DNA of 64,000 nucleotides from a virus (IMGVR_UViG_3300000439_000004:1-64000); one strand, 5' to 3'. Counted from the stretch's first letter, positions 1 to 6,128 are shown. The notes: generated from the sequence alone by a model not told the origin. Numbers and translations: made by a program.

Positions 1-345
1 AAACTCACTTTTTGGAGGTATTTCGTCAAAACGTTCTACCATTAGGTAGTGGGTTTGTTCAGTCTTAGTGTCCACCAAAACACACTTACTAACGTGTTTT
101 TTACCCCTTAATTCCCCACTCTCAAAATCACCTTCCAACCCTTCTTTTTTCTCATTAGATTGAACTCTTTTTTCGTAATCGTTACCTATTAGGTAATTAC
201 AACTACTTCTTTTAATAACCTTATCAAAAAAAGGGTTATTTGTTTTGTTCATTCTTACTTTAGTTTCCATTGTGATATTTACAAAGGTACTTTTTTCAAC
301 TCCCATTAAAAGGGTTTCTAACTGTGTTTGTGTAATCTGTGTCAT
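1..345 (-). CDS. Hypothetical protein, partial (runs off window start)
   Basis: ATG at 345 (MTQITQTQLETLLMGVEKSTFVNIT...), frame open to position 1; preceded by TATCTTTG promoter; not in ORF track. Confidence 0.7.
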   Translation of the reverse strand, partial: MTQITQTQLETLLMGVEKSTFVNITMETKVRMNKTNNPFFDKVIKRSSCNYLIGNDYEKRVQSNEKKEGLEGDFESGELRGKKHVSKCVLVDTKTEQTHYLMVERFDEIPPKSEF

Positions 346-402
346 ATACTTATGTTTTAGGATACAAAGATACAATTTTATTTTGACATTATTGGTATAA
401 AG

Positions 403-522
403 TTATCCACATGTTATCCACACTGGTTCTGGGGTCACAGGACTGGAACCTGAGTTTGAATAAGTTTTGGCAGTATTAAATTATGTTCCACGTGAAACGT
501 TTTTAAATCTTACTGCCAAAAC
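403..522. promoter_or_regulatory. Origin/partition module 1: two DnaA boxes + parS flanked by inverted repeat
   Basis: TTATCCACA at 403-411 and 414-422; TGTTCCACGTGAAACG at 484-499; GTTTTGGCAGTA 464-475 / TACTGCCAAAAC 511-522. Confidence 0.8.
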
Positions 523-633
523 AATTCATGATCCAGAATTCCAGATCACGTCAGTCCACTCAAGTTTTCTTGGACAAAAAAAATCCCCATCTTTCGATGA
601 GGACTTTCCTATTTATCAACTATTACCAAAAGT

Positions 634-1398
634 TTAAAATCTTAGGTTTAACTTATCATCACCACGACTTTTGAAGTTGTAAATATCTTCAATCATTTGA
701 CGATATGTACTTTTATCTCCACAAAGTTTCATCTTACTTGGGTTTAGTAACATTTTGTGATAAAAACGTGAAAAATCAAATTCGGGTTTCTTTTCCACTA
801 TTGTCATTAATGTACGGACAAAAACGGAACGATTATAACCCTTTTCAAAATAAGGTTTCAATGATAGGATATTATTACCCCATTCTTTACCCTTTTCGTA
901 AGATAATACTTGGAATTTACCTTCGGCGAAGTCCATCTTGTTTATGTATCGTGTACCACTATTCAATAGTAACATAATACACTCACTCAAACTGAACATC
1001 GGAAATTCTTTACGGAATTGTTCCAACTGTGTGTAATTGTCATTACCTTGATTTGACAATCCATTAATGTAATCCCCTTTACCCCAATCTTTACTATGTT
1101 GGTTATACTTACGGGCGGAGTTGAATATCCCTTTTGGTGTATTCGGTATTGAATGGTCAATAATGTAATGAATACCACAACCAACCAATCTTGACGATTC
1201 TAATCTATGTTGCCCATCAACAACAAAGTATTTTGAAGTAACAATAATTGGGGATACCAATAACCCATCCTCTTTCATTGAGGTTGATATTCTTTTGATA
1301 CGATTTTTTGATAAGGGTGTATCGAACCTTCTGTTTACATCTGAAAATTTGAACATATCCAAATTTTTCGTGAAAAGTACCTGTGGTGTTTTAACCAT
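634..1398 (-). CDS. ParB/Srx-like N-terminal domain protein
   Basis: SPIIVT..YFVVDGQHRL motif typical of ParB N-domain; lies between parS modules. Confidence 0.7.
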   Translation of the reverse strand: MVKTPQVLFTKNLDMFKFSDVNRRFDTPLSKNRIKRISTSMKEDGLLVSPIIVTSKYFVVDGQHRLESSRLVGCGIHYIIDHSIPNTPKGIFNSARKYNQHSKDWGKGDYINGLSNQGNDNYTQLEQFRKEFPMFSLSECIMLLLNSGTRYINKMDFAEGKFQVLSYEKGKEWGNNILSLKPYFEKGYNRSVFVRTLMTIVEKKPEFDFSRFYHKMLLNPSKMKLCGDKSTYRQMIEDIYNFKSRGDDKLNLRF

Positions 1399-1532
1399 TT
1401 TTAATGTTGTTCAGATTTTCTCCTGTCCCCGATTTTTGGTAATAAACAAATAAATAATATCAATGTCTTTCTTTCATTGACGATACAAAAGTACAACCTA
1501 CATACTTACCGGACAAATTTATTTCATTAAAG

Positions 1533-1652
1533 TTATCCACACGTTATCCACACTGGTTCTGGAGTCGAGGAACCTGGTTCCATGGTAGAATATGTTTTGG
1601 CAGTATTAAATTATGTTCCACGTGAAACGTTTTTAAATCTTACTGCCAAAAC
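1533..1652. promoter_or_regulatory. Origin/partition module 2
   Basis: TTATCCACA 1533-1541 and 1544-1552; parS-like 1614-1629; inverted repeat 1594-1605/1641-1652. Confidence 0.8.
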
Positions 1653-1758
1653 ATATTTCGGGGTCTTCAGTGCACTGAGGGGACTCAAGTTTTATTGGAC
1701 AAAAAAAATCCCGATGTAGAAACATCAGGATTAAACGATTGCTTGTATATGAAAAATT

Positions 1759-2136
1759 TTAATCTATTCCAATTTTACTCATATCAATTAAGAAAAACTC
1801 GTGATTGTTTGTTTCACGTTGTGACACTTTAATACGTTCTATGGTATTTGATACCAACACTTTAAAACGTCTTTCTTCTTCTTTAAAAAGGATTGTTAAA
1901 GTCGCGGAGGTAGTTAATACTCCATCCCATTTTCTTTTCAACAATTCAAACATTCGTTCAGATACTTTTATATGTGTATCATTTTCAGATGACACTAACA
2001 CACTTGTAATCTTTAAAATGTCGGGTTGAAACTCCCTTGAAAAATGTTCCAACTTCTTTTCCTCAATAGGTTTCTTACCCATTGAATTGATAATTTCTTC
2101 TACTGACTTTTCTTCTCTTGTTTTAATAAATTTCAT
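1759..2136 (-). CDS. Hypothetical early protein
   Basis: ORF with upstream repeated promoter cassette. Confidence 0.6.
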   Translation of the reverse strand: MKFIKTREEKSVEEIINSMGKKPIEEKKLEHFSREFQPDILKITSVLVSSENDTHIKVSERMFELLKRKWDGVLTTSATLTILFKEEERRFKVLVSNTIERIKVSQRETNNHEFFLIDMSKIGID

Positions 2137-2371
2137 ATATTTTAATTTTAGACCACAAAAGTAAGGTTTTTATATTTACCAAACAAATTTATTTTTGAAT
2201 CTTATCTCAAAGTGAAAACATAAAATGATAATAATCAAAGTTCTATTAGGATGTTCATACAATAAACCAAACATCACACCAAACCAAAAAATCATAATAC
2301 TAAAATACTTACTTTTAAAAATTTTTTTTGTGTTCATATACTCGTTTTTTAATTGTTAGAAAATATCTTGA

Positions 2372-2698
2372 TTACTCAAAATCAAACAAAGGTTTAAGTA
2401 CTTCAAAATCTTCTTTTGATACGTTATTAAATTCCATTTGGTCAGGTGTTAATGATACAATAACCATATCACCCCATATCATTGTATTACAAAATACAAC
2501 ATAATTATTGTATTTGTACATATTTTGGTCAACGTCATGAAAAATGGTAAATAGTTTACCACTTGGAGATTGAACCCTAAGACCTGTTATATTTTCAACA
2601 TTTTTACCTACCAATTCAAAAATGTCACCATGTACACCAGAAAAATGTCTGTGTTCGATTTGTTTTGTTTTTGTGTTAACATGAATAATCTTTTTCAT
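2372..2698 (-). CDS. Hypothetical early protein
   Basis: ORF with upstream repeated promoter cassette. Confidence 0.6.
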   Translation of the reverse strand: MKKIIHVNTKTKQIEHRHFSGVHGDIFELVGKNVENITGLRVQSPSGKLFTIFHDVDQNMYKYNNYVVFCNTMIWGDMVIVSLTPDQMEFNNVSKEDFEVLKPLFDFE

Positions 2699-2758
2699 AT
2701 AATTTAATTTTAGGTTACAAAAATAATAGTTTTATACTTACCAAACAAATATAATTTG

Positions 2759-2968
2759 TTAATTTCTTGTTAATGGATTAATATATCTACCATCATTTTC
2801 TTTTTCTTTCCAAAAACTTTTATGTGTTTCTTCATTTAAACATAACGGACACGTTACTTTATTTATATCTGTACTTCTTTTAATATGTGCAGAACCATTC
2901 AAACATCTAACATTTGAATAGTTTTTGATTGGTAAGAAATGTGTTTGTGTTAAATAATCATTATTCAT
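2759..2968 (-). CDS. Small hypothetical protein (CxxC)
   Basis: ORF with TATCTTTG promoter cassette. Confidence 0.55.
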   Translation of the reverse strand: MNNDYLTQTHFLPIKNYSNVRCLNGSAHIKRSTDINKVTCPLCLNEETHKSFWKEKENDGRYINPLTRN

Positions 2969-3025
2969 ATACTTTAATTTTAGAATACAAAGATAAGGGT
3001 TTATCTAATACCATATAAGATAAAG

Positions 3026-3133
3026 TTATCCACATTTCTTCTGAGGTCAAGGACCTGTTCACACTGGGAATAATTGTTTTGGCAGTATTATATAACTGTT
3101 CCACGTGAAACAAATATGTAATACTGCCAAAAC
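3026..3133. promoter_or_regulatory. Origin/partition module 3
   Basis: TTATCCACA 3026-3034; consensus parS TGTTCCACGTGAAACA 3097-3112; inverted repeat 3076-3087/3122-3133. Confidence 0.8.
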
Positions 3134-3239
3134 AATTTCAATCTTAAGCAAGCTCCGACTCTGGATCTTAAGTACAAAAAAAATCCCCACATTTCTGTGA
3201 GGACTATATTCGGTTTTTACACAAACCGTAACTAACTTC

Positions 3240-3437
3240 TTATGAACTCGTTGATGGTTTAACCATATTAAACGATTTGTAATACTCTTCTCTTGTCAAT
3301 GGTTTTCGGTATATACAATCGGGACATTTATAACCACCTGTAATACCAATACCACTTTTCCATTCACCTATTGTGGACATACGACCACAACTACATTTTG
3401 CATGTGAACTCGGACTTAAATTATTTCTATTTGACAT
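3240..3437 (-). CDS. Small Cys-rich hypothetical protein
   Basis: CxC...CxxC; last gene of a three-gene operon. Confidence 0.55.
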   Translation of the reverse strand: MSNRNNLSPSSHAKCSCGRMSTIGEWKSGIGITGGYKCPDCIYRKPLTREEYYKSFNMVKPSTSS

Positions 3438-3440
3438 ATA

Positions 3441-3644
3441 TTATTTTATTTCATGTTTAATACAACCAAAATTTTCACCTGTTTTTACAGTGATAGATAA
3501 ACCTGAATCATCAGAAACTTCTACATCTACACCAATATCATCATCCTTAAAACTATATCCATAATAAAAATCAATAAGTCCACATTGACCCATATTGGTA
3601 TTTTTAAACCTTGTCCAATATACACAAGTTTTACAATTATTCAT
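3441..3644 (-). CDS. Small Cys-rich hypothetical protein
   Basis: CKTC..GQC..FGCIKH; tightly packed operon. Confidence 0.6.
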   Translation of the reverse strand: MNNCKTCVYWTRFKNTNMGQCGLIDFYYGYSFKDDDIGVDVEVSDDSGLSITVKTGENFGCIKHEIK

Positions 3645-3655
3645 ATACTATCGTT

Positions 3656-3850
3656 TTATATTATTGAAATTGTTGAGATTATTTTACCCGAAAATTGTAA
3701 TCTACATTTTCTTACTTCATCGGAATAATACTTTTCTCTAAGAGTTTCAACAACAAATTTATCGTGTTGATTTTTAAAGATTGATAAAATATGTTGAGGA
3801 TTAACATACTTTATTTCATTATTCCCTATTTTTAACTCAATCATTTCCAT
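3656..3850 (-). CDS. Small hypothetical protein
   Basis: ORF with promoter cassette. Confidence 0.55.
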   Translation of the reverse strand: MEMIELKIGNNEIKYVNPQHILSIFKNQHDKFVVETLREKYYSDEVRKCRLQFSGKIISTISII

Positions 3851-3921
3851 ATACTTTAATTTTAGGATACAAAGATAAGAGGTTTATAATTACCAAACAA
3901 ATATAATTTGTTAAAATTATA

Positions 3922-4062
3922 TTAATGTGGTCCACAATTATAAATTCTACCACTATAATAATCAGTTATTTTATAGTTCGCAGGACAACAACTCCCACCT
4001 CTATAACCCACACAACTTGTTAATAACATCCCAACCAAAACAACTAATAAAATCTTTTTCAT
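3922..4062 (-). CDS. Small lipoprotein (46 aa)
   Basis: MKKILLVVLVGMLLTS-CVGYRGGSCCPANYKITDYYSGRIYNCGPH; lipobox LTS-C; promoter cassette at 4063-4089; not in ORF track. Confidence 0.7.
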   Translation of the reverse strand: MKKILLVVLVGMLLTSCVGYRGGSCCPANYKITDYYSGRIYNCGPH

Positions 4063-4119
4063 TTACTTTAATTTTAGGATACAAAGATAATACTTTTTAT
4101 AATACCATACAACATAAAG

Positions 4120-4242
4120 TTATCCACATATTATTCACATACCTTCAGATGACGAAAGACCTGTTCTCACGGGGAATAATTGTTTTGGCAGTAGATATAA
4201 AAATAAATGTTCCACGTGGAACACCTCCCCCACTGCCAAAAC
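4120..4242. promoter_or_regulatory. Origin/partition module 4
   Basis: TTATCCACA 4120-4128, TTATTCACA 4131-4139; perfect palindrome TGTTCCACGTGGAACA 4208-4223; inverted repeat 4182-4193/4232-4242. Confidence 0.8.
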
Positions 4243-4487
4243 TTATTTATACCCTCCCCCTTATCCTCTCATCACCCCTCCCTCCCTTAAAATCCCCCCT
4301 CCCCCCTACCGTATCCCCCCTTATATAAGGGGTATTTTGATGTCTGTACACCCCCATCAGTTACGTGAGTGAAATTTTTCCGGAAAAAATCTGGAAGTTG
4401 ACTTTTTTATCCTATAAATGAAAAAAAAATTTTCCAGAATTTTTTGGAAATTTGTGATTATTTCTTATATTTGAAAAAAAAATTAAT

Positions 4488-4682
4488 ATGGGAAAAAAGA
4501 TTACATGGGTAGAAACATTTTCTACTACGGCATTTTATAGTGCTAAGATTACGGATGAACAGGCGAAATTATTTGAGACGGATCGTGAGAGGTTTTTTGA
4601 TGAGGTAGAGTTTAGGGATAATCAGGAATTGGTTAGGGAGAAGATTAGTGATTATGGTCCTGAGAATTTTGAGATTGAGTAA
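4488..4682 (+). CDS. Hypothetical protein
   Basis: ORF with upstream TATATTTG and downstream hairpin. Confidence 0.6.
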   Translation: MGKKITWVETFSTTAFYSAKITDEQAKLFETDRERFFDEVEFRDNQELVREKISDYGPENFEIE

Positions 4683-4686
4683 GTTT

Positions 4687-4715
4687 AAAACCCACAATAA
4701 AATGTGGGTTTTTTT
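4687..4715. terminator. Bidirectional intrinsic terminator
   Basis: AAAACCCACA-ATAAAA-TGTGGGTTTT; near-identical copy at 6085-6115. Confidence 0.75.
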
Positions 4716-5652
4716 ATACATATTTTAATTCTATTTCTTTATTGTCAACATATGTTCCTTTTTGATATATTTCACCATTATAATATGTTTCAAAGGGTCC
4801 ATTTCTTTTATTGTCAAGATATGTTCCTTTTTGATATATTTCACCATTATTTTTATATGATTCAAAGGGTCCATTTTTTTGTCCGTTGACATATTTTACT
4901 TTTTCATGTAAATGATTGTTTATATATATTTCAACTGTTCCATGTTTTTCATCATCAAGATATGTTCCTTTTTGATATATTTCACCATTATAATATGTTT
5001 CAAAGGGTCCATTTATTTTATTGTCAACATATGTTCCTTTTAAAGATATTAATCCATTTTTATCATAATCTATAAATGGTCCATTTCTTTCTCCATTAAT
5101 AAATGTTCCTTTTTCCGATATTTTTCCATCATCATAATATATTTCAAATGGTCCATTTTTTTCTCCATTAACATATGTTCCCTTCATATATATTGAACCA
5201 TTATCTCTATAATGTATAAATGGTCCATTATATGTAATATTATCTTCTCCTAATGTTGCTGACATAAAAGGATATTCATTAGGACGATATGTTAAATAAA
5301 AATCAACTAATCCATCTTTATGATCATTTTTATATATTCCTTTTTCTTTTAAACGATTTTCATTATATATTTCAAATGGTCCATTTTTTTTACCATTAAC
5401 GTATGTACCTTTTTCTTTTAATTCTTGTTTATGACGATCATAAATATAATATTGTCCTTCTCTTTTATCGTTTTTATAGGTAAAAATACTACCATCTTTA
5501 TTTATCCACCTACCTTGCATTCCGTTTTCATCTTCATATCCTTCATTATCTTTTGGTTGTAACATATTTTTTAATTCTTTGCGTATTTTATCCATTGGAT
5601 AATGATCTGGACGATTTTTTGAGATGAATCTTATTATTTCTATTGGGTTCAT
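4714..5652 (-). CDS. MORN-variant repeat protein
   Basis: Many NGPFETYYNGEIYQKGTY repeats; DNA-level direct repeats (e.g. 4751-4804 and 4961-5014). Confidence 0.8.
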   Translation of the reverse strand: MNPIEIIRFISKNRPDHYPMDKIRKELKNMLQPKDNEGYEDENGMQGRWINKDGSIFTYKNDKREGQYYIYDRHKQELKEKGTYVNGKKNGPFEIYNENRLKEKGIYKNDHKDGLVDFYLTYRPNEYPFMSATLGEDNITYNGPFIHYRDNGSIYMKGTYVNGEKNGPFEIYYDDGKISEKGTFINGERNGPFIDYDKNGLISLKGTYVDNKINGPFETYYNGEIYQKGTYLDDEKHGTVEIYINNHLHEKVKYVNGQKNGPFESYKNNGEIYQKGTYLDNKRNGPFETYYNGEIYQKGTYVDNKEIELKYV

Positions 5653-5655
5653 AAT

Positions 5656-5970
5656 TTATAAAGCTTGTTGGTTATTTTTATCCATAAATTGGTTTGATTC
5701 AAAATGTATTTGATATGGTGATAATGGGTCACTCAGATTATATATTGTGAAATATGAAGAATTTGGATATAAGTCTAGATAATGTTTAAAGTGATAATAT
5801 CCTCCCATTGTGCAAATTTGTATTGATGCGCCTTGGTCTCTTCCTGCGCAATTTGCTAGGATTGTTTTATAAACTTTCCATGCGTTTTCATCATCTTTTA
5901 ATTTATTTGGGGTTTCGAATATTTGATACCCGTCGCAGATTCCCATATATTTAATTCCGACATTTTCCAA
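5656..5970 (-). CDS. Hypothetical protein, probably 5'-truncated
   Basis: PYQIHFESNQFMD C-terminus; frame open upstream to TAA at 6055-6057. Confidence 0.5.
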   Translation of the reverse strand: MENVGIKYMGICDGYQIFETPNKLKDDENAWKVYKTILANCAGRDQGASIQICTMGGYYHFKHYLDLYPNSSYFTIYNLSDPLSPYQIHFESNQFMDKNNQQAL

Positions 5971-6128
5971 TTTTTCGATATCATTTGTGGAAACATAATT
6001 TTTTTTATCATCTTTTTTAATACCTGATGTTAGTTTAACATTTTTTTCAGCAATTTAAACCATTAAATTTTTCAAAATAAAATAAAAACCTCACAATAAA
6101 ATGTGAGGTTTTTTTATATTTATGATAT

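Follow-up and report, generated by a model that had tools for sequence, protein, structure and literature searches.

Modules of DnaA boxes and parS sites in a T4-type phage record as probable members of an array of intergenic control cassettes

Why would a phage carry, within a few kilobases, repeated copies of two sequences that belong to bacterial chromosomes, the DnaA box and the ParB-binding site parS? The question is raised by IMGVR_UViG_3300000439_000004:1-64000, a 64,000-nucleotide stretch of viral DNA (here called the window) that makes up the first 64 kb of a linear IMG/VR virus record of 162,180 bp. The record has a GC content of about 28% and a CheckV completeness of about 52%; the genome-wide negative results given below cover this record, that is, about 52% of the phage genome. 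A first-pass annotation of the window described four modules of DnaA boxes and parS around a ParB-like gene, and took them for a chromosome-like bidirectional origin with mini-chromosome segregation. The four modules are present as described, at 402-522, 1532-1652, 3025-3133 and 4119-4242. We consider it probable that they are not an origin but the head-proximal members of an array of intergenic control cassettes, similar to promoter-early stem-loop (PeSL) cassettes, in the early-gene hyperplastic region of a T4-type jumbo phage with Bacteroidota-type promoters. The anatomy of these cassettes, their repetition and their shuffling between strains at repeated promoters are observed directly.

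Four modules and the cassettes that contain them

Each module combines one or two DnaA-box 9-mers with a 15-16/16 match to parS, the latter within an inverted repeat with arms of 11-12 bp. The exact 9-mer TTATCCACA is found at 403, 414, 1533, 1544, 3026 and 4120, with TTATTCACA at 4131, and the parS sequences are TGTTCCACGTGAAACG at 484 and 1614 (15/16), TGTTCCACGTGAAACA at 3097 (16/16) and TGTTCCACGTGGAACA at 4208. Counting both strands, the 162,180-bp record has 14 copies of the exact 9-mer; six fall within the first 4.2 kb, all in one orientation. With up to three mismatches to parS allowed, we detected 13 strand-matches, compared with 2.78 ± 2.06 in shuffled sequence, and none of 100 shuffles reached 13; with up to two mismatches, the only matches are the four module sites. 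The composite of arm and parS occurs four times in 162 kb (backward control, 0), and the extended box AAGTTATCCACA, the arm word TTTTGGCAGT and GTTCCACGTG are confined to the modules across the whole record. On these shuffles and controls, the identities assigned to the DnaA box and to the bacterial chromosomal parS are true, non-random matches, and a genome-wide count (parS with up to two mismatches, extended box, arm word) finds the modules nowhere else in the record. Exact parS sequences were present in at least 119 stretches of viral contigs. Of the loci examined among these, only 4 had a box close by or an inverted repeat around parS; the composite is therefore not widespread among them. 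A search with the module pattern returned 0 viral contigs, a single-protein locus search returned none, and blastn of window positions 1-6000 against 50,697 phage records gave no match.

All genes between positions 1 and 5970 are on the minus strand, apart from one small plus-strand open reading frame (ORF; 4488-4682), and each module occupies the gap between two leftward genes, after the terminator of the first and before the promoter of the second. Along the minus strand the order is intrinsic terminator, about 45 nt, inverted repeat or hairpin, about 45 nt, box or boxes, and promoter, and the start codon follows about 27 nt downstream of the -7 word. The terminators consist of a GNRA-looped stem followed by T8, with compensatory stem changes between copies (for example, ...CATC GAAA GATG..., ...CAAC GAAA GTTG... 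and ...CACC GAAA GGTG...). The predicted promoters have a -7 TAnnTTTG element and, in many cases, a -33 TTTG, and we take them to be of Bacteroidota type.

Two metagenome contigs of the same phage, L085 and L086, are 97% and 99% identical to window positions 1-2775, respectively, and both encode an identical copy of the 254-aa product of the ParB-like gene. They run 6.7 and 9.4 kb past the left end of the window, and the module array extends with them. The window and the two contigs together have 23 distinct promoters, 13 of which are boxed. The proximal box ends 29-30 nt upstream of the -7 element at 10 of these 13 and 39 nt upstream of it at the other three, that is, one helical turn apart. 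Where a second box is present, exact or weaker, it has the same orientation and is located 11 bp farther upstream. The -33 TTTG, at 20-nt spacing, is found at all 10 unboxed promoters versus 6 of the 13 boxed ones. A 17-bp palindrome, AACAAATTATATTTGTT, spans the -33 region of unboxed promoters at 2744-2760 and 3896-3912; it may be an operator or simply the upstream promoter consensus of the clade.

The link between box and promoter is clade-wide and orientation-specific. The 254-aa protein has 244 homologues in the protein collection, and with it we collected 160 related loci (80 viral and 80 metagenomic); homologues at 69-90% identity, of this protein (P0002 and P0003) and of the second ParB described below (P0123-P0131), were left out of the locus comparison. 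In the 158 loci other than L085 and L086, which total 1.55 Mb, TGTGGATAA occurs 65 times, and 29 of the 65 copies have TAnnTTTG 15-80 nt downstream. The same count gives 7 of 65 in the reverse orientation, and 214 of 4335 (4.9%) for 200 composition-matched 9-mers. Judged by its placement, the DnaA box looks like a promoter-proximal regulator site, unlike an origin cluster.

The hairpin and the shuffling of cassettes between strains

Hairpins with the same arms recur along the array, with 9 copies in L085 and 12 in L086. Four kinds of inner part are 9 nt long and three kinds 22 nt, one of these three being the reverse complement of another; the rest measure 36-49 nt, and parS is found in these long ones only. 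Boxes and parS also occur separately: parS is present without a box at L085 84-148, and boxes are present without parS at L085 5638 and 6415 and at L086 5252, 6243 and 7150. The number of parS sites is four in the window and five in each of L085 and L086. Since both contigs contain hairpins that lack parS, the inverted repeat appears to be a generic post-terminator hairpin, and parS its cargo.

The first-pass annotation had left the inverted repeat to a possible third protein. The repeat is indeed an element separate from parS, but its arms keep their sequence while their spacing varies from 9 to 49 nt. A hairpin accounts for this more readily than a dimer bound to half-sites in duplex DNA would; either the repeat folds or each arm is a site on its own. 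Six hairpins folded as single-stranded DNA gave -12.4 to -19.8 kcal/mol, with z-scores of -4.9 to -7.9. An Rfam scan of the hairpins yielded nothing at gathering score, with sub-threshold miRNA-like matches on long hairpins only. When we searched for the arms with any loop, we recovered two viral and eight prokaryote contigs, each with one solitary unrelated hairpin; hence, these prokaryote contigs offer no host REP-like source. Relatives have stems of their own at the equivalent position (TTGTTTGGCA, TTGTTTCGCA, TTTGTCTGGA, TTCTGTCGCA, TGATTGGCA and AGTCTAACTGC), with loops of 9-61 nt. As far as can be read from sequence, the stems are lineage-specific, and the cassette grammar is common to many related loci. 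One 7-mer stands out in the loops: of 94 distinct hairpin loops, 47 contain GTATTAC or GTATGAC, 37 in sense and 10 in antisense (L007, L009, L100, L105, L123, L124, L135, L136, L085 and L086), and it recurs in promoter spacers (GGTATTACAT).

Strains of the phage differ by cassette swaps at repeated promoters. The insert that carries module 3 (Table 1) is bounded by 89-nt promoter repeats, at 2687-2775 and 3839-3927, that are 85% identical, and the joint is inside the repeat. L085 and L086 have instead about 1.7 kb of other cassettes, including two further parS hairpins, ahead of their equivalent of module 4. At another junction, a parS hairpin of L085 is exchanged in L086 for a hairpin with a 22-nt inner part.

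Whole-cassette differences of this kind, the presence of one hairpin per cassette, constant in its arms and variable between them, and the occurrence of one 22-nt inner part in both orientations would all suit a different explanation, in which the hairpins are recombination sites for cassette exchange, integron attC-like or resembling miniature inverted-repeat transposable elements, and the likeness to DnaA boxes and parS says nothing about bound proteins. A relative with hairpins, G002, also encodes a tyrosine recombinase (4.9e-36). We regard this explanation as extremely unlikely. The single mapped breakpoint is in the promoter repeat, outside the hairpin; the attC core words RYYYAAC and GTTRRRY are not matched by the arms; and chance falls far short of explaining parS matches of 14-16/16 at five or more distinct junctions, together with 9/9 boxes at 13 promoters. 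Neither the 162-kb record nor another relative, G001, which is 93% complete and has hairpins, yielded a tyrosine recombinase, and we dropped the integron-like idea as unsupported. The G002 recombinase, a 273-aa ORF (G002:C1:187797-188246), belongs to a T4-type phage whose 310-kb genome has terminal repeats.

The cassette logic has a precedent in the PeSLs of T4-type phages, whose definition and role are given by Arbiol et al. 2010 (PMC2839356) and Comeau et al. 2014 (PMC4122927). In these accounts, PeSLs are repeated terminator/promoter units between small ORFans in T4-type hyperplastic regions, their promoters are of host sigma type, and the insertions, deletions and replacements that distinguish relatives are joined in the repeated units. 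The array has the same properties: a T4-type genome, a unit of promoter and terminator stem-loop upstream of small ORFans, predicted promoters of host sigma type, and strain insertions and deletions with their joints in repeats. The array differs from PeSLs in four respects: the terminator is followed by an additional hairpin of conserved sequence, more than half of the promoters have DnaA boxes upstream of them in helical register, some of the hairpins hold parS 16-mers, and the promoters are of the Bacteroidota TTTG/TAnnTTTG type.

Table 1. Positions of the module elements and of the features around them in the window
Feature	Position	Strand	Details
-7 element, TATCTTTGTATC	361-372	-	Bacteroidota-type; for the gene leaving the window's left end (169 aa in L085/L086)
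Module 1 DnaA-box pair	402-422	-	TGTGGATAAC twice, 11-bp period; proximal box ends 30 nt before -7
Module 1 hairpin	464-522		Arms 464-475 and 511-522; parS 484-499 (15/16) inside; as single-stranded DNA -14.1 kcal/mol, z -5.2
Intrinsic terminator of ParB-like gene	574-609	-	GNRA-looped stem and T8
ParB/Srx-fold gene	634-1398	-	254 aa
-7 element of ParB-like gene promoter	1482-1493	-	-33 TTTG 20 nt upstream
Module 2 tandem DnaA-box pair	1532-1552	-	Proximal box ends 39 nt before -7
Module 2 hairpin	1594-1652		Arms 1594-1605 and 1641-1652; parS 1614-1629 inside; -17.2 kcal/mol, z -7.5
Intrinsic terminator of 125-aa gene	1699-1734	-	Gene 1759-2136
Strain-specific insert	2776-3838		Holds module 3 plus four small genes; missing from L085 and L086
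Module 3 single DnaA box	3025-3034	-	Ends 30 nt before -7 at 2984-2995
Module 3 hairpin	3076-3133		Near-perfect 66-bp palindrome; arms 3076-3087 and 3122-3133; parS 3097-3112 (16/16); -19.8 kcal/mol, z -7.9
Intrinsic terminator of gene 3240-3437	3174-3209	-	
Module 4 DnaA boxes	4119-4139	-	Exact box 4119-4128, weaker TTATTCACA 4131-4139; -7 at 4078-4089; gene 3922-4062
Module 4 hairpin	4182-4242		Arms 4182-4193 and 4232-4242; perfectly palindromic parS 4208-4223; first cassette of the leftward array
Array head, divergent gene-free stretch	4243-4487		G-run-rich tract, palindrome, AT-rich repeats

Coding strand, GC skew and the origin question

An origin was the first explanation offered for these sequences: a chromosome-like bidirectional origin and centromere, from which a plasmid prophage would replicate and then segregate via ParB-parS (and SMC). 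The DnaA boxes are real, four to five parS sites are concentrated in about 4 kb, two ParB-fold genes lie within the same array, there is a local skew minimum at 6 kb, and the stretch at 4243-4487 is divergent, gene-free and AT-rich, all of which would agree with such an origin. We nonetheless judge it very unlikely. It is unsupported because skew follows the coding strand, the boxes stand at a fixed distance from promoters, the genome is T4-type and the array continues to the left.

The first-pass annotation predicted a minimum of cumulative GC skew at 4.3-4.45 kb; we found a local minimum at 6 kb and the global minimum at 61 kb. It had also seen by eye a shift from C-rich to G-rich near 4.4 kb. 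A C-rich tract does end at about 4330, but the change of sign comes later, at 5-6 kb. When GC skew is computed in 1-kb bins, it follows the net coding strand closely (r = 0.83, n = 162), and the five equivalent minima of cumulative skew, at 6, 23, 61, 106 and 117 kb, are every one at a switch from minus- to plus-strand genes; the switch nearest to the modules is at 5970/6129. A skew switch unexplained by gene orientation, by which an oriC-type origin would be recognized, was not seen.

Nor do the boxes form a cluster of a few hundred base pairs next to an unwinding element. They are single or paired, one set per promoter, and are dispersed promoter by promoter across 3.7 kb; in L085 and L086 the series goes on to the left. 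Strains differ in how many parS sites they have and in where these lie, and one module is on a strain-specific insert. The T4-type assignment is based on a Gp23 major capsid protein (1.4e-63), gp32 (3.3e-11) and an Rnl1-like ligase; T4-type phages carry their own replisome. Profile searches of the 162-kb record detected no DnaA C-domain, ParB_N, HTH_ParB, ParA (PF13614, PF01656) or Phage_integrase, and there was no ParA among the 10 larger ORFs of L086 that we scanned. Of the parts of a ParABS system, the parS sites are thus present, and a ParA partner was found neither in 162 kb nor in those 10 ORFs.

The array head (Table 1) has several features of its own. On the minus strand, the tract at 4243-4330 has several runs of G5-G6 and is G-quadruplex-like, in a genome of 28% GC; positions 1-100 of L086 conserve the G-rich part. 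The stretch also includes a perfect palindrome of 16 bp, CCCCTTATATAAGGGG. The AT-rich repeat stretch occupies 4380-4487, where two direct repeats at 4392-4484, 73% alike and of the form TTTCC(G/A)GAA-A/T-run-TGGAA, lie ahead of the plus-strand gene 4488-4682. Beyond this gene, 4714-5652 (minus) encodes a 312-aa protein of MORN-type repeats, with DNA repeats of 69-72 nt; it has an FHA match over the family cut-off in which no single stretch passes alone. Among 10 window ORFs scanned, seven had no family match at E <= 0.01, and the matches of the rest were under Pfam cut-offs, except for the match of the ParB-like gene to phrog_12305. Farther left in the early array, L086:8099-8965 encodes a DUF932 protein and L086:9237-9503 has a weak DpnD/PcfM-like match; both gene types are found in the leading regions of conjugative plasmids.

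Candidate readers of the boxes and parS sites

We asked which proteins might read these sites. The ParB-like gene amid the modules does encode a ParB-fold protein, as first described, but not one with a recognizable parS-reading helix-turn-helix (HTH): the 254-aa product has a ParB/Srx fold with a DGQHR motif, and no HTH_ParB or other HTH match. It matches phrog_12305 at 1.8e-20 and, weakly and under the cut-off, Pfam GmrSD_N (3.1e-4), and the profile of its family reaches only the N-domain of the ParB structure 4umk (E 0.0019). The family is virus-only, and its nearest Atlas clusters are viral. Among the 160 loci of the family, parS (up to two mismatches) together with box clusters was found in none but L085 and L086. 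The gene is one ordinary, single-gene cassette of the array, hairpin-flanked like the others.

The same array contains a second ParB, of 259 aa, at L086:12274-13053, about 7.4-8.2 kb to the left of window position 1. This protein scores 24.3 bits with ParB_N (just below the cut-off), 23.4 bits with HTH_ParB (cut-off 22.6) and 9.8e-35 with phrog_1033, and it aligns to Spo0J (1vz0, 3.9e-5) and KorB (8qa8, 3.1e-4). It has a DGHRR motif, we saw no ParA-binding motif of the LGKGL type in it, and short-loop hairpins are found on either side. By eye, its recognition helix is nearer to that of KorB than to that of Spo0J, which points to a site other than canonical parS. A search for loci with relatives of it recovered only two viral ones (G003, complete, 58% identical; and G004) and none in genome contigs; neither G003 nor G004 has a parS at up to one mismatch. 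Conversely, G002, a complete 310-kb relative with hairpins, has one perfect parS and no HTH_ParB gene. This parS lies right after a terminator and between two plus-strand genes, at 1718-1733 of L297 (G002:C1:57500-61000). These few relatives weakly favour a host ParB as the reader of parS. As to the host, the sole hint is that one homologue of the HTH-bearing ParB comes from a metagenome-assembled genome labelled 'Ferruginibacter sp.'.

Within the cassette reading that we prefer, the boxes (TGTGGATAAC, in an 11-bp register) would be sites close to promoters at which a DnaA-type reading head binds; the simplest candidate is host DnaA in the role of a transcription factor. DnaA is known in this role at promoter-proximal boxes, as at E. 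coli dnaA and nrdAB, in the B. subtilis DnaA regulon and in the stimulation of lambda pR, and same-orientation boxes spaced by 2 bp (11-bp period) have the spacing of DnaA arrays in E. coli oriC. The array resembles DnaA-regulated promoters in its consensus 9-mers at a fixed promoter distance and in its same-orientation tandems with 2 bp between boxes. It differs from them in that a dozen or more promoters stand in one array, in a lytic-type phage, the sites are putative, and the reader is possibly a phage protein. Docked DnaA would couple some of the early promoters to the host initiator, and a high phage copy number would soak up DnaA; the first-pass suggestion that host DnaA or ParB is used or titrated may hold. 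The parS 16-mers would be optional cargo in the hairpin of the first four to five cassettes, where they might load a ParB, most simply that of the host, onto the head of the early array; they would form neither a replication origin nor a partition locus of plasmid type. The hairpin would be a third, independent element that probably acts folded or is read by a lineage-specific phage factor, and a host-type, sigma-A-like promoter would close each junction.

In chromosomal ParABS systems, parS (TGTTNCACGTGAAACA) lies near oriC, and plasmid prophages such as P1 and N15 also rely on partition. The array shares with ParABS several parS copies, matching at 15-16 of 16 positions, within a few kilobases. 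Unlike ParABS, it has no ParA in 162 kb, its parS sites are embedded in hairpins and vary in number between strains, the genome is T4-type, and the other members of the phage HTH-ParB family (G003, G004) have no parS nearby. A second comparison is with KorB and its operator OB, which regulate plasmid RK2 globally. As there, a ParB-family protein without a cognate ParA lies beside many promoters with repeated sites, and its HTH aligns to KorB (8qa8, 1r71). In contrast to KorB-OB, we identified no palindromic operator of fixed spacing, the arms of the hairpin being 9-49 nt apart.

The KorB comparison bears on whether the phage supplies its own readers for the same anatomy. The HTH-bearing ParB, or else the 254-aa protein, would then occupy parS or the arms and regulate the whole early array in the manner of KorB, and a phage protein with DnaA domain IV would occupy the boxes. 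The domains of the second ParB, its phrog_1033 match and its Spo0J and KorB alignments suit such a role, as do the apparent lack of ParA, which is shared with regulator-type ParBs, and the lineage-specific stems, as expected of a co-evolving phage factor. There is a candidate for the boxes as well, since G001 (310 kb) encodes a stand-alone DnaA C-domain in a 133-aa ORF (1.3e-21; L284, G001:C1:83398-83595, minus). Even so, we think phage readers unlikely. G001, with the domain, has only two box-promoter pairs in 310 kb, G002 has neither a gene for the domain nor such pairs, and the 162-kb record has no DnaA C-domain. For parS, the HTH-bearing ParB and the site do not go together in the relatives, as described above; its KorB-like helix suggests a non-canonical site; parS is missing from the other 158 loci of the 254-aa family; and both G001 and G002 have hairpins without HTH_ParB.

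A bolder version of the host-reader reading is possible, and we hold it only tentatively: a lytic T4-type jumbo phage would dress the head of its early array as a copy of the origin-proximal part of the host chromosome. Host DnaA would dock in helical register at early promoters, a dozen of them or more, where it would sense or activate; after phage replication the sites would become a sink for the initiator. Clamps of host ParB-CTP at four to five parS sites in a phage-specific hairpin would insulate or silence the array, or strip the host chromosome of both proteins. Our literature search, outside which most subscription journals and supplements lay, found no account of DnaA-box promoters or host-type parS sites in T4-type phages.

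Several points weigh against the cassette reading as we have framed it. Classical PeSLs are not known to have the second hairpin or the host-factor sites, which limits the analogy to cassette logic. The phage's own HTH-bearing ParB (L086:12274-13053) could be the reader of parS. About 52% of the genome is covered, so a phage protein with DnaA domain IV, as in G001, may exist. In the hairpin stems, G-T versus A-C is unbiased by strand (outward 49 versus 40, inward 49 versus 56), giving no signal for RNA or DNA as the acting form. Finally, the divergent stretch with its G-rich tract and AT repeats, at 4243-4487, could hold an origin of the T4 (R-loop) kind.

If the bolder version holds, the hairpin would be a 'slot' that accepts host sites, and modular cis-elements of this kind would be new. 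If host DnaA and ParB do bind, a phage of virulent type would read, or drain, the two proteins that time replication and segregation in its host, and host takeover might be achieved through cis-sites alone, with no phage protein required. The array also suggests an early-promoter grammar for uncultured Bacteroidota jumbo phages, consisting of a terminator, a lineage-specific hairpin, an optional box and a promoter, which would be useful for annotation and for building expression tools.

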